Assembly: GCA_035493135.1 (NCBI GenBank) | Contig: DATJIR010000380.1 | Coordinates: 4,501-68,500 of the forward strand | Direction: 5' to 3' | DNA: 64,000 nucleotides | Source: Verrucomicrobiia bacterium | GTDB taxonomy: Bacteria; Methylomirabilota; Methylomirabilia; Rokubacteriales; CSP1-6 | Part shown: positions 5,556-33,202 of the stretch, in pieces | Layout: each line of letters opens with the position of its first letter | Position numbering within the stretch: the first letter of the stretch is position 1 | Made by a program: the position numbers and the translations under genes | The notes under the pieces: generated by a model | The model's database searches: none | What the model was told of the DNA's origin: nothing | What the model saw: the letters and a program-made list of their open reading frames with translations, nothing else

Positions 5556-5571
5556 TGCAAGGCAGATGCCG
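5556..5571 (-). promoter_or_regulatory. sigma-54-like -24/-12 element (CGGCATctgccTTGCA on the minus strand)
   Basis: Two mismatches to consensus. The -12 C lies 43 nt upstream of the CBS ATG 5514. It is divergent from the hsp20 promoter and shares the dyads at 5613-5651. Confidence 0.4.
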
Positions 5572-5612
5572 ACAGAAATGCTCGGTATATCGGGCCTTCC
5601 GCGCCCGCCGGG

Positions 5613-5651
5613 CTGGGGCGGGCGAGCCTCACCGGGGCGCGCGCGCCTCGG
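5613..5651. promoter_or_regulatory. candidate enhancer (bEBP) sites: dyad CTGGGGCGggcgagCCTCAC plus adjacent dyad CCGGGGCGCGCGCGCCTCGG
   Basis: The same 20-bp element type occurs at 22448, 26563 and 33097. The first dyad starts exactly 90 bp upstream of the TGGCAC, as at the second hsp20 promoter. Confidence 0.5.
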
Positions 5652-5702
5652 CAAGCTGCCCGGACGCCGATGCCAAGCGGTTGAATTGGCGCGGTTTTCT
5701 TC

Positions 5703-5718
5703 TGGCACTCGCGATGCA
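5703..5718 (+). promoter_or_regulatory. sigma-54 promoter (TGGCACtcgcgATGCA)
   Basis: One mismatch to TGGCAC-N5-TTGCA. The -12 C lies 57 nt upstream of the hsp20 ATG 5774. Confidence 0.65.
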
Positions 5719-5773: not shown

Positions 5774-6211
5774 ATGCGCGCGTTGATGCCGTGGACGGGG
5801 ATGACGGGCCTGAAGCAGGAGATGGACCGGATGTTCGACCGGTTCTTCGAGAGCAAGTGGGACGAGTTCCCCGCGCTCGGGGAGTGGGCGCCCAGCATGG
5901 ACATCTCGGAGACCAAGGACAGCCTGGTGGCCAAGATCGAGGCGCCGGGCATGCAGGAGAAGGACATCCAGGTCTCGCTCCAGGAGAACCTCCTGACCAT
6001 CAAGGGCGAGAAGAAGCAGGAGAAGGAAGAGAAGGACGAGCGGTATCACCGGGTGGAGCGGACCTACGGGTCCTTCACCCGCAGCGTGCGCCTGCCGGTG
6101 GCGGTGGACGCGAGCCGAGTGACCGCGAGCTTCAAGAACGGGCTGCTCACCGTGACCCTGCCCAAGACGCCGGCGGCCAAGGGCACGATGATCCCGATCA
6201 AGGCCGAGTAG
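5774..6211 (+). CDS. Hsp20/alpha-crystallin small heat-shock protein
   Basis: The alpha-crystallin core is ...PSMDISETKDSLVAKIEAPGM...LTIKGEKK...ERTYGSFTRSVRLP...NGLLTVTLPK. AGGAGG lies upstream. Confidence 0.95.
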   Translation: MRALMPWTGMTGLKQEMDRMFDRFFESKWDEFPALGEWAPSMDISETKDSLVAKIEAPGMQEKDIQVSLQENLLTIKGEKKQEKEEKDERYHRVERTYGSFTRSVRLPVAVDASRVTASFKNGLLTVTLPKTPAAKGTMIPIKAE

Positions 6212-17953: not shown

Positions 17954-17969
17954 TGCAAGCGGGGTGCCC
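17954..17969 (-). promoter_or_regulatory. possible sigma-54-like element (GGGCACcccgcTTGCA on the minus strand)
   Basis: One mismatch, but the -12 C is only 8-14 nt from the pal start codons. That implies an almost leaderless mRNA, so confidence is low. Confidence 0.25.
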
Positions 17970-18112
17970 GGCCCCCAAGCGCGCGCCGAATCGACGATCC
18001 GAGCCTTGCGGTGGGCTGCCCACGACCGGAATTCCCACGACAGTGGGGCAGGGGTGACCCGCCCCGGTCGGGCCAGGAACACCAACTACGGGGGCTTCCG
18101 GTCCGGCCGGCG

Positions 18113-18128
18113 TGGCACTAGGATTGCT
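18113..18128 (+). promoter_or_regulatory. sigma-54 promoter motif (TGGCACtaggaTTGCT)
   Basis: A perfect TGGCAC-N5-TTGC. The -12 C is only 16 nt upstream of GTG 18143, which is an unusually short leader. Confidence 0.55.
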
Positions 18129-22408: not shown

Positions 22409-22447
22409 GGGGGTAGCCCGCATCCCGCCGGGGCGGCACGGTCCCGC

Positions 22448-22467
22448 CTGGGGCGTGCGCTCCCCAG
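22448..22467. promoter_or_regulatory. candidate enhancer dyad CTGGGGCGtgcgctCCCCAG
   Basis: A perfect inverted repeat CTGGGG-N8-CCCCAG, centred about 88 bp upstream of the predicted sigma-54 start site. Confidence 0.5.
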
Positions 22468-22519
22468 CCGGCGCGGGCGCTCGTCTCGGCAAGTCGTGGA
22501 TTCCGTAGCAGAAGAGCGG

Positions 22520-22535
22520 TGGCACTTCCGTTGCA
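22520..22535 (+). promoter_or_regulatory. sigma-54 promoter (TGGCACttccgTTGCA)
   Basis: A perfect consensus. The -12 C lies 43 nt upstream of ATG 22577. Confidence 0.8.
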
Positions 22536-23412: not shown

Positions 23413-24882
23413 ATGAGGATCACCGAGTCCCTGCGCGGGGCGGCCCGGCGGGTCGACGAGTGCATCTGGGAGATTCCGGCGGAGGCAAAGCCCGGCATGC
23501 TGGTGCCGGCGCGCGTCTACGCCTCGGGCCCGCTGCTCGAGCAGATGGACGACGGCGTGTTCGAGCAGGTCACAAATGTGGCATGCCTGCCCGGCATCGT
23601 CCGCGCCTCGCTCTGCATGCCCGACGGCCACTGGGGGTACGGCTTCCCGATCGGCGGGGTGGCCGCCTTCCGCGCCGACTCGGGGGTGATCTCGCCGGGC
23701 GGCATCGGGTTCGACATCAACTGCGGGATGCGGCTCGTGCGCACCGGCCTCACCGAGGCCGAGGTGCGGCCCCGCCTGCCGCAGCTGATCGAGGCGCTGT
23801 TCGGCTCGGTACCGTCCGGGGTGGGCGCGAAGGGCTTCGTGCGGCTCTCCGGGTCCGAGTTCCGGAAGGTGATGGTGGAGGGGGCCGGCTGGTGCGTGGC
23901 GCGCGGTTACGCGTGGCCCGAGGACCTCGCGCACATCGAGAGTGGCGGCTGCCTGTCCGGCGCCGATCCCGCGCACGTCAGCGCGCGGGCGCTCGAGCGG
24001 GGGATGGAGCAGCTCGGGACGCTGGGCTCCGGCAACCACTACCTGGAGATCCAGGTGGTGCGACCGGGCGCCATCCACGACGAGCGCGTGGCGCGCGTCC
24101 TCGGGGTGGACGGCCCCGGCCAGATCTTCGTCATGCTCCACTGCGGCTCGCGCGGGTTCGGGCATCAGGTCGGCACCGACTACCTCCGGATCTTCGACCG
24201 GGCGATGAAGCAGTACGGTATCAGCGTGCGGGACCGCGAGCTCGCGTGCGCGCCGTTCGCGTCGAAGGAAGGGCAGGCCTACTTCGGGGCGATGACCGCC
24301 GCGGCCAACGCCGCATTCGCCAACCGGCAAGTCATTACCCACCGCATCCGGGAAGTGTTTTCCAGGGTGTTCGGGCGGGACGCCCGCGCGCTGGGCCTCT
24401 CGGTGGTGTACGACGTCTGCCACAACACCGCCAAGCTCGAGCGCCACGTCGTGGACGGGCGGGAGCAGGAGCTGGTCGTGCACCGCAAGGGCGCCACCCG
24501 CTCCTTCGGGCCGGGCGAGCCGGACGTGCCGGCCGACTACCGGGAGGTCGGCCAGCCGGTGATCATCGGCGGCTCCATGGAGACCGGCTCCGCGCTCCTG
24601 ATCGGAACCGCGCGCGCCATGACCGAGACCTGGGGCTCGACGGCCCACGGCGCCGGCCGCACCATGTCGCGCGCGCAGGCCAAGCGTCGAGTGTGGGGCG
24701 AGACCCTGATCAAGAGCATGGCGGAGCGCGGGATCGTCGTGCGCGCAGCGTCAAAGTCCGGCGTGGCCGAGGAAGCCGGGTTCGCCTACAAGGACCTCAC
24801 CGCGGTGGTCGACACCTTGCATCGCCTTGATCTCTCCCGCCCCGTGGTCTCGCTCGCGCCCATCGGCAACATCAAGGGCTGA
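23413..24882 (+). CDS. rtcB: RNA-splicing ligase RtcB
   Basis: MPDGHWGYGFPIGGVAAF, GGIGFDINCGMRL, GSGNHYLEIQ, HCGSRGFGHQ and HNTAKLE are metal- and GMP-histidine-site motifs of RtcB. Confidence 0.95.
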   Translation: MRITESLRGAARRVDECIWEIPAEAKPGMLVPARVYASGPLLEQMDDGVFEQVTNVACLPGIVRASLCMPDGHWGYGFPIGGVAAFRADSGVISPGGIGFDINCGMRLVRTGLTEAEVRPRLPQLIEALFGSVPSGVGAKGFVRLSGSEFRKVMVEGAGWCVARGYAWPEDLAHIESGGCLSGADPAHVSARALERGMEQLGTLGSGNHYLEIQVVRPGAIHDERVARVLGVDGPGQIFVMLHCGSRGFGHQVGTDYLRIFDRAMKQYGISVRDRELACAPFASKEGQAYFGAMTAAANAAFANRQVITHRIREVFSRVFGRDARALGLSVVYDVCHNTAKLERHVVDGREQELVVHRKGATRSFGPGEPDVPADYREVGQPVIIGGSMETGSALLIGTARAMTETWGSTAHGAGRTMSRAQAKRRVWGETLIKSMAERGIVVRAASKSGVAEEAGFAYKDLTAVVDTLHRLDLSRPVVSLAPIGNIKG

Positions 24883-24887
24883 GGCGG

Positions 24888-24907
24888 GGCGGCGGGGCAT
24901 CGCCGCC
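24888..24907 (+). terminator. GC hairpin after rtcB (ggcggcg-gggcat-cgccgcc)
   Basis: A 7-bp perfect stem with a 6-nt loop, 6 nt after the stop. There is no U-tract, so its function is uncertain. Confidence 0.35.
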
Positions 24908-24991
24908 TCAACCGGGAGCGAGCCGCCCCAGCCGGACGAGACCGGCTCCGTCCAAGGTCCCGTTTTCCCGCGCACGCTTCTTCGGGTTGCG

Positions 24992-25007
24992 TGGCACTTG
25001 GATTGCA
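24992..25007 (+). promoter_or_regulatory. sigma-54 promoter (TGGCACttggaTTGCA)
   Basis: A perfect consensus. The -12 C lies 40 nt upstream of ATG 25046. Confidence 0.8.
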
Positions 25008-26562: not shown

Positions 26563-26582
26563 CTGAGGCGTGTTCTCCTCAC
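26563..26582. promoter_or_regulatory. candidate enhancer dyad CTGAGGCGtgttctCCTCAC
   Basis: The same element type as at 22448, 5613 and 33097, centred about 87 bp upstream of the predicted sigma-54 start site. Confidence 0.45.
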
Positions 26583-26632
26583 GCGCCCGCGCGGCGGCGA
26601 CGCCAACGTCCCGATTCTTCAGCCTTGCCGCA

Positions 26633-26648
26633 TGGCACCCGCGTTGCA
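26633..26648 (+). promoter_or_regulatory. sigma-54 promoter (TGGCACccgcgTTGCA)
   Basis: A perfect consensus whose 16-mer is identical to 33187-33202. The -12 C lies 41 nt upstream of ATG 26688. Confidence 0.8.
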
Positions 26649-30862: not shown

Positions 30863-33073
<2,211 letters not shown>

Positions 33074-33096: not shown

Positions 33097-33134
33097 CTGG
33101 GGCGCCGTCGCCACAGCGAGGCGGGGCCGCCTCG
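33097..33134. promoter_or_regulatory. candidate enhancer sites: dyad CTGGGGCGccgtcgCCACAG plus adjacent palindrome CGAGGCGGggCCGCCTCG
   Basis: The first dyad starts exactly 90 bp upstream of the TGGCAC, as at 5613/5703. The block ...CGCCTCGGCA is shared with the first hsp20 promoter. Confidence 0.5.
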
Positions 33135-33186
33135 GCAGTCGTCGACCTCTCGGGCCGTAACTTACCGAATCGATGAGGATCTCCCG

Positions 33187-33202
33187 TGGCACCCGCGTTG
33201 CA
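33187..33202 (+). promoter_or_regulatory. sigma-54 promoter (TGGCACccgcgTTGCA)
   Basis: A perfect consensus. The -12 C lies 49 nt upstream of ATG 33250. Confidence 0.85.

Follow-up and report, generated by a model that had tools for sequence, protein, structure and literature searches.

NtrC- and ZraR-type regulators act on sigma-54 promoters from enhancers that consist of dimer-sized dyads about 80-130 bp upstream of the -24/-12 element, with tandem sites and an IHF-assisted loop. In the zraP-zraSR region of Escherichia coli, a central enhancer is common to two divergent sigma-54 promoters. The rtcBA genes of E. coli and Salmonella have a sigma-54 promoter with an upstream enhancer, and their regulator RtcR (CARF-AAA+-HTH) is usually encoded divergently from rtcBA. 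The DosR/DevR regulon of Mycobacterium tuberculosis includes a small heat-shock protein, many Usp, CBS proteins and phosphofructokinase, and receives two-component input. DosR is a NarL-type regulator that works at sigma-70 promoters.

The NmpRSTU system of Myxococcus xanthus includes an NtrC-like regulator, NmpR, that binds two tandem dyads of consensus GCGCA-N5-TGCGC upstream of sigma-54 promoters (PMC11841059). Under hypoxia NmpR induces a CBS-domain protein, Usp, a cbb3 oxidase, the radical-SAM enzyme HemN and its own operon, with a protoglobin kinase and a hybrid kinase (NmpU, NmpS) as sensors (PMC11841059). In Desulfovibrio vulgaris, conserved palindromes upstream of sigma-54 promoters have been assigned to neighboring EBP genes; that study contains no usp or hsp20 regulon and no motif similar to the one described below (PMC4641369). 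Our literature search for a usp/hsp20 sigma-54 regulon returned survey-level mentions only, and it returned no paper linking Rokubacteria/Methylomirabilota to sigma-54.

Rokubacteria/Methylomirabilota are abundant soil bacteria without a cultured model, and we know of nothing published on their gene regulation. We analyzed a window of 64,000 nucleotides (C380:4501-68500) from a genome of this group (G000; 4.57 Mb, 71.6% G+C, 409 contigs, 80% complete). The relatives of its RtcB protein assign the genome to Candidatus Methylomirabilota/Rokubacteria. A sequence-only reading of this DNA had described a shared dyad, CTGRGGCG-N6-CCNCAS, upstream of sigma-54 promoters and had proposed it as a candidate site for an enhancer-binding protein (bEBP).

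Results

Exact matches to CTGRGGCG-N6-CCNCAS begin at 5613, 22448, 26563 and 33097, all on the forward strand, just as the sequence-only reading had listed them. It had estimated about 0.1 expected copies per window; dinucleotide shuffles averaged 0.10 matches, and none of 100 shuffles reached four. A TGGCAC-N5-TTGCA element had been placed downstream of every dyad. We found this element on the forward strand at 22520, 26633 and 33187, and the element at 5703 differs in having ATGCA as its -12 box. The distance from dyad start to TGGCAC start is 90, 72, 70 and 90 bp for the sites at 5613, 22448, 26563 and 33097, which preserves the earlier claim of identical 90-bp spacing at the two hsp20 promoters. 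The form TGGCAC-N5-(T/A)TGCA describes the elements at 5703, 22520, 24992, 26633 and 33187, and CGGCAT-N5-TTGCA the one at 5571(-). These six elements stand 55-71 bp ahead of start codons. Pfam matches support the gene names in the operons hsp20-PCMT-Usp, CBS - AMP-ligase/acyltransferase - DUF308, DUF302-archease-RtcB, DksA/TraR - cytochrome c - PFK and hsp20-Usp. All features are collected in Table 1.

The sites at 22448 and 26563 are single, and those at 5613/5632 and 33097/33116 form tandem pairs 19-21 bp apart. The second GC dyads reported at both hsp20 promoters proved to be weaker copies of the same motif when scored with a position weight matrix (PWM), in which they were taken as 5632-5651 and 33116-33135; both start 71 bp from TGGCAC. 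At the first hsp20 promoter the distal dyad is centered near -106 and the proximal dyad near -87; their distances from the divergent CBS promoter are 61 and 80 bp, respectively. That divergent sigma-54-type promoter, which had been reported beside 5613-5651, was found again on the minus strand. Another site, at 24892, comes straight after the rtcB stop codon. A longer GC hairpin beginning with this stop codon (CTGAGGCGG...CCGCCTCA, window 24880-24912) overlaps the site, which could have an additional role as a terminator stem.

Table 1. Predicted regulatory features of the window and the candidate regulators. Positions refer to the window unless a contig is named.
Feature	Position	Strand	Remarks
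Divergent sigma-54-like promoter CGGCATCTGCCTTGCA, operon CBS - acyl-ligase/acyltransferase - DUF308	5556..5571	-	
Distal dyad CTGGGGCGGGCGAGCCTCAC (hsp20-PCMT-Usp promoter)	5613..5632	+	PWM 20.8; conserved in orthologous hsp20 regions
Proximal dyad CCGGGGCGCGCGCGCCTCGG	5632..5651	+	PWM 15.2
IHF-like box ATTCAACCGCTTG, 1 mismatch to WATCAANNNNTTR	5674..5686	-	between dyads and hsp20 promoter
Sigma-54 promoter TGGCACTCGCGATGCA of hsp20 (ATG 5774)	5703..5718	+	-12 box ATGCA
Weak distal site CCGGGGCGGCACGGTCCCGC, 92 bp before TGGCAC	22428..22447	+	PWM 7.1
Perfect dyad CTGGGGCGTGCGCTCCCCAG, 72 bp before DUF302-archease-rtcB promoter	22448..22467	+	PWM 22.4
IHF-like box AATCCACGACTTG, 1 mismatch	22490..22502	-	
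Sigma-54 promoter TGGCACTTCCGTTGCA of DUF302-archease-rtcB	22520..22535	+	
Reverse-oriented dyad TTGAGGCGGCGATGCCCCGC, 100 bp before 24992 promoter	24892..24911	-	PWM 12.3
Sigma-54 promoter TGGCACTTGGATTGCA, operon repeat protein - DUF2267	24992..25007	+	
Dyad CTGAGGCGTGTTCTCCTCAC, 70 bp before DksA/TraR - cytochrome c - PFK promoter	26563..26582	+	PWM 23.0
IHF-like box AATCGGGACGTTG, 2 mismatches	26604..26616	-	conserved in L001
Sigma-54 promoter TGGCACCCGCGTTGCA of DksA/TraR - cytochrome c - PFK	26633..26648	+	
Orphan CHASE3-PAS-PAS histidine kinase, candidate sensor	30866..33073	-	domains
Distal dyad CTGGGGCGCCGTCGCCACAG, 90 bp before second hsp20-Usp promoter	33097..33116	+	PWM 19.6
Proximal dyad GCGAGGCGGGGCCGCCTCGG, 71 bp before promoter	33116..33135	+	PWM 10.3 forward, 14.7 reverse
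Sigma-54 promoter TGGCACCCGCGTTGCA of second hsp20 (ATG 33250)	33187..33202	+	
Candidate activator, REC-AAA+-HTH_8, 469 aa	G000:C210:11254-12660	-	REC + Sigma54_activat + HTH_8, GAFTGA

Because the original pattern had been defined after seeing the data, we ran genome-wide tests. Two exact matches lie beyond the window, on C130 and C328, with sigma-54-like elements 111 and 82 bp downstream. Each of the six exact matches in 9.1 Mb of strand therefore lies upstream of a sigma-54-like element, at 70-111 bp, and the motif is not equally frequent at random GC-rich positions. Sigma-54-like elements number 450 in 9.13 Mb of strand, so the chance of meeting one in an 80-bp window is 0.004. When one mismatch was allowed, a promoter followed 9 of 77 dyads, and the mirrored upstream control gave 0. 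We also enumerated all palindromic 5-mer pairs with spacings of 0-14, leaving the original pattern unused. Upstream of 117 sigma-54-like sites, the top dyads were GGGGC-N6-GCCCC (p = 1e-10) and TGGGG-N8-CCCCA (p = 3e-8), so de novo discovery of the kind suggested by the sequence-only reading recovers the motif. The palindromes are often imperfect, and how far a half-site extends is not exactly fixed.

The dyad is not a generic feature of sigma-54 promoters. A PWM scan found no dyad at the window promoters 18113(+) and 17969(-), which led us to reject that idea and indicates that the dyad marks one regulon. These two promoters must be served by a different activator. They are back-to-back sigma-54 elements (window 17954-18128). 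An unsystematic reading by eye of the regions upstream of the 23 strict genomic TGGCAC-N5-TTGCW sites left about 14 without an obvious dyad.

The distances from dyad to TGGCAC cluster near 60, 70, 81, 91, 101 and 112 bp, and the best-fitting period in this genome is 10.4 bp (Rayleigh p = 1e-4). In relatives the distances cluster at 68-72, 79-83 and 89-94 bp, with no values at 73-78 or 84-88. An IHF-like box, WATCAANNNNTTR with at most two mismatches, is present on the opposite strand in seven of 17 regulon promoters, always -42 to -30 from TGGCAC, compared with a background frequency of 2.5%; the remaining regulon promoters have weak boxes only. The box also occurs at the C130 and C210 promoters of this genome, and relatives keep it as GGCAAC-N4-TGAATC. 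The genome encodes five HU/IHF-family genes, rpoN (in fragments on C219 and C168) and 16 bEBPs (Sigma54_activat matches). Read this way, the dyad, the IHF-like box and the -24/-12 element form what is, by prediction, the textbook layout of enhancer, IHF site and sigma-54 promoter.

Dyad-bearing promoters define a predicted regulon of about 17 operons in this genome. They precede the two hsp20 operons, which carry Usp, CBS and acyl-CoA synthetase, and the operons for CBS - acyl ligase, DUF302-archease-RtcB, repeat protein - DUF2267, DksA-like - cytochrome c - PFK and malic enzyme - CBS. Further members are a second malic enzyme, citrate synthase, a fused cbb3 oxidase, Usp genes, a radical-SAM enzyme, a PAS-LuxR regulator (PAS-GerE) and several small or unknown proteins. 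The same architecture stands ahead of Usp, CBS, DUF2267, cytochrome c, hsp20 and archease genes in G021, which belongs to another family.

Just upstream of the window, at G000:C380:2591-2651, three dyads in a row precede a weaker promoter, TGGCCGTCGAGTTGCA, which drives malic enzyme - CBS - small basic protein. A comparable protein, likewise small and basic, is encoded behind dyad-bearing promoters on C284 and in G021.

We examined the conservation of the dyad, the gap and the promoter as one composite pattern. A strict form found 41 matches, spread over 14 of 31 relatives, and its reversed control found none. This form misses sites that start with CG and -12 boxes of the ATGC type, and G007, G016, G019, G027 and G028 appeared motif-free with it. 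A relaxed form that corrects for this gave 62 matches, against 1 for the reversed control, in 18 of the 31 relatives and in four families of the order. Motif and spacing are kept at the orthologous hsp20, rtcB, dksA and usp promoters of relatives, so the dyad also came through the conservation check that had been suggested. In relatives the rtcB operons are also preceded by sigma-54 promoters and dyads, for example GTGAGGCGCGGACGCCCCAG, and these dyads suggest that the site may be a fuller palindrome, STGRGGCG-N4-CGCCYCAS. L001, the closest public relative, retains the half-sites and the IHF-like box at its DksA promoter, with a diverged spacer. The dyad at 33097..33116 is identical in G009 and nearly identical in G010. 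The candidate enhancer-binding-protein site proposed at the outset thus fared well in all of these computational checks, from which we infer protein binding.

Every sigma-54-driven hsp20 ortholog has tandem dyads and the IHF-like box, and relatives keep the proximal dyad at this promoter as CGGGGCG/CGAGGCG-N6-GCCTCGG. The sequence-only reading had noted that 5613-5651 lies between two divergent promoters, and the CBS promoter on the other side is likewise conserved: it accompanies hsp20 in seven relatives, which keep the reverse complement TGCAAGGCAG[AG]TGCCG. In contrast, hsp20 paralogs with sigma-70-like promoters have no dyads, no IHF-like box and no divergent CBS promoter. Because the classes differ in both promoter type and dyad, we distinguish two hsp20 classes under different control. 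A third hsp20 of this genome, at G000:C20:5500-5934(-), is 74% identical to the gene at 5774. It has a sigma-70-like TTGAC...TATAAGAT promoter and an AT-rich leader without a dyad, and the same holds in G009.

The rtcB operon of L001 has neither a sigma-54 promoter nor a dyad. This operon has lost its promoter and therefore cannot be used as a footprint for the 22448 site. At L001:2900-2940 (JBGQHJ010000004.1), DUF302-archease-rtcB comes directly after an RND efflux pump gene, and a 230-bp insertion follows the DUF302 gene.

Three genomes, G003, G004 and G008, have no regulon, activator, kinase or hsp20 subfamily, though they are 93-95% identical to G000 in control proteins. The more distant genus members G001, G007 and G013 have the module. 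Because nearer relatives lack it and more distant ones have it, this distribution suggests that regulon, activator, kinase and hsp20 subfamily may be gained or lost as one accessory island. In G000 the parts of this island are spread over the window and contigs that include C130, C210 and C229.

A candidate activator is encoded on another contig, C210. Directly behind its gene stands a usp-usp-kinase operon with a perfect TGGCACCTCGGTTGCA promoter, preceded by an IHF-like box and by tandem dyads at 73 bp. The order of C210-type gene, tandem dyads, perfect sigma-54 promoter and usp is found in at least 11 genomes from several families (G000, G001, G007, G009, G010, G013, G014, G017, G020, G021 and Rokubacteria GWA2_70_23). 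Orthologs of the C210 regulator share at least 62% identity and paralogs at most 53%, which separates them cleanly. Of the 20 genomes with a C210 ortholog, counting a frameshifted copy that tblastn revealed in G028, 18 contain the motif, and none of the 11 genomes without one does; these genomes are related and not independent, so that Fisher p-values overstate the case. The two exceptions, G002 and G023, have the ortholog and no composite match. As controls we compared C141 and C197, two of the 15 other bEBPs, and both occur in essentially the whole genus regardless of the motif. The islands of G013 and G007, which lie on long contigs, contain no bEBP gene other than the C210-type gene. The neighborhood of the gene, and its co-occurrence with the motif in related genomes, make the REC-AAA+-HTH protein at G000:C210:11254-12660 the probable activator.

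The C210 regulator scored below the cut-off of every NCBIfam equivalog model, and its best hits outside Rokubacteria are 40-49% identical. A related-locus search with it returned one true ortholog, L081, and otherwise mostly generic AAA+ peptides. The G028 copy (G028:C10:107271-108634(-), L246, in a 10-contig assembly) lies next to hsp20 and is frameshifted near residue 272; it could be a pseudogene or reflect an assembly indel. Another bEBP of G000, at C50:588-1103(-), has no N-terminal regulatory domain (a PspF-like start), and its long C-terminal extension is truncated where the contig stops.

The window itself encodes an orphan kinase whose core resembles kinases encoded beside C210-type regulators. 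In G002, G019, G020, G021 and G022 the C210-type gene is immediately preceded by a kinase gene whose product shares 53-65% identity with the core of the 30866-33073 kinase, and we found no other close paralog of this core in G000. The upstream kinases vary in their sensor parts, which comprise TM+PAS, PAS-PAS and PAS-GAF arrangements. In G000 the kinase gene is divergent from the dyad-bearing promoter at 33097-33135, and a kinase gene is divergent from such a promoter in G001, G007, G013, G014 and G017 as well. On balance, the same two kinds of genomic evidence favor the CHASE3-PAS kinase of the window as the kinase of the C210 activator, and we lean toward reading the two as a split two-component pair.

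Discussion

The dyads are very likely upstream activator sequences, or enhancers, for one NtrC-family bEBP. The consensus of the sites is approximately STGRGGCG-N4-CGCCYCAS, with a core of TGGGGC-N6-GCCCCA. In the mechanism that we propose, activator dimers would occupy one to three phased sites with centers near -87, -107 and -128, and the phosphorylated dimers would assemble into an ATPase ring. An IHF-like bend at about -62 would bring this ring to sigma-54 RNA polymerase at the -24/-12 element, where ATP hydrolysis would open the promoter. The two sites at 5613-5651 would serve both divergent promoters, as the sequence-only reading had imagined. One regulator would in this way co-induce an accessory island of stress and low-energy genes. 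Oxygen or energy limitation is a possible signal for the regulon, which we put forward tentatively.

The sites might instead be enhancers for a different bEBP, either one of the 16 or one that is absent from the 80%-complete assembly, and the usp promoter next to the C210 gene would then be merely another regulon member. A profile search found no bEBP gene on the window's contig, and the phyletic controls covered just two other bEBPs. Dyads are present in G018 (78% complete) and G005, where no C210 ortholog was found, and G021 has a further bEBP gene at a distance of 6 kb from hsp20. These observations would fit a different activator, but that explanation has to contend with the order of bEBP, dyads, sigma-54 promoter and usp that at least 11 genomes keep, with the C210-type gene as the sole bEBP gene in two islands, with the split of 18 of 20 against 0 of 11 genomes, and with the paired kinase gene, which in six genomes is transcribed divergently from a dyad-bearing promoter. 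We consider it unlikely.

We regard two further explanations, in which no bEBP binds the dyad, as considerably less probable. A non-bEBP, for example a PAS-LuxR regulator of the NarL/LuxR type (DosR-like) or a repressor, could modulate sigma-54 promoters that are activated elsewhere. Its appeal lies in gene content like that of the DosR dormancy regulon, in the PAS-GerE regulator among the regulon members and in half-sites of some relatives (GGGAC/GTCCC) that are reminiscent of the DosR box. However, sigma-54 promoters require a bEBP, and the dyad is, besides the IHF-like box, the only conserved upstream element, at a canonical upstream-activator distance and in helical phase; if it were not the bEBP site, no alternative candidate site would remain. 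We judge this very improbable. It is more improbable still, to the point of being negligible, that the dyads are structural repeats without a protein partner, such as hairpin or terminator remnants or a dispersed repeat, that lie near promoters by accident. The perfect 6-bp inverted repeat at 22448 and the position of the 24892 site, straight after the rtcB stop codon and inside a longer GC hairpin, are what such repeats might look like. Yet arm sequence is conserved across unrelated promoters beyond what complementarity needs, many of the palindromes are imperfect, and sites are found between divergent genes. A T-run is missing, the flanking sequence shows no conservation, the distance and phasing to sigma-54 elements are strict, and the reversed-pattern control gave 0-1 matches. 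Enhancer sites for a single NtrC-family bEBP thus remain our preferred interpretation of the dyads.

The predicted enhancer element of this sigma-54 stress regulon is real and belongs to a well-known kind. The motif and the likely sensor-regulator pair are previously undescribed, and the wiring is textbook. Because the mechanism is classical, the value of the finding lies in annotation and physiology and not in a new principle. It supplies a testable cis-element, a regulon of about 17 operons and a named candidate sensor kinase and activator. The regulon suggests how slow-growing Rokubacteria may enter a maintenance state, and it places RtcB RNA repair under a general stress activator instead of RtcR. 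In a broader and more speculative view, Rokubacteria could possess a 'dormancy cassette' that is self-contained and horizontally mobile, with the dyads as its cis-code. It would consist of a split two-component pair (a variable-sensor kinase and an NtrC-type activator) and about 17 sigma-54 operons whose cargo includes Hsp20, Usp, CBS, ADP-forming acyl-CoA synthetase, cbb3 oxidase, malic enzymes and RtcB RNA repair. It would be switched by oxygen or energy limitation, be gained or lost as a unit and be convergent with mycobacterial DosR and myxobacterial NmpR. We hold this view to be possible, though rather less than probable.

The locus shares features with each of the systems introduced above. 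Like zraP-zraSR, it has an enhancer between divergent sigma-54 promoters (5556-5718). It differs from NtrC and ZraR systems in its motif and in a regulon that is stress- or dormancy-like and concerned with neither nitrogen nor zinc. As in rtcBA, rtcB is placed behind a sigma-54 promoter with an upstream enhancer, but the operon here is DUF302-archease-rtcB, rtcA was not seen, and the upstream neighbor is a co-directional P-type ATPase gene. No RtcR was found in the 80%-complete assembly, in which the best match scored 347 bits against a cut-off of 650. Because the rtcB operon has the same dyad as hsp20 and usp, RNA repair appears to be folded into the general regulon. The likeness to DosR is limited to gene content, since the promoters here are of the sigma-54 type and call for an AAA+ enhancer-binding protein.

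The NmpR regulon is matched here by CBS, Usp, cbb3 oxidase and radical-SAM members. The regulon described here adds hsp20, RtcB, a DksA-like protein and malic enzymes, and its candidate kinase has a CHASE3-PAS-PAS arrangement and is not a protoglobin kinase. The dyad itself, TGGGGCG-N4-CGCCCCA, does not match the NmpR consensus. We conclude that M. xanthus NmpR appears to be the closest characterized system, and that the likeness, known here from sequence, lies in the mode of regulation and in the targets.
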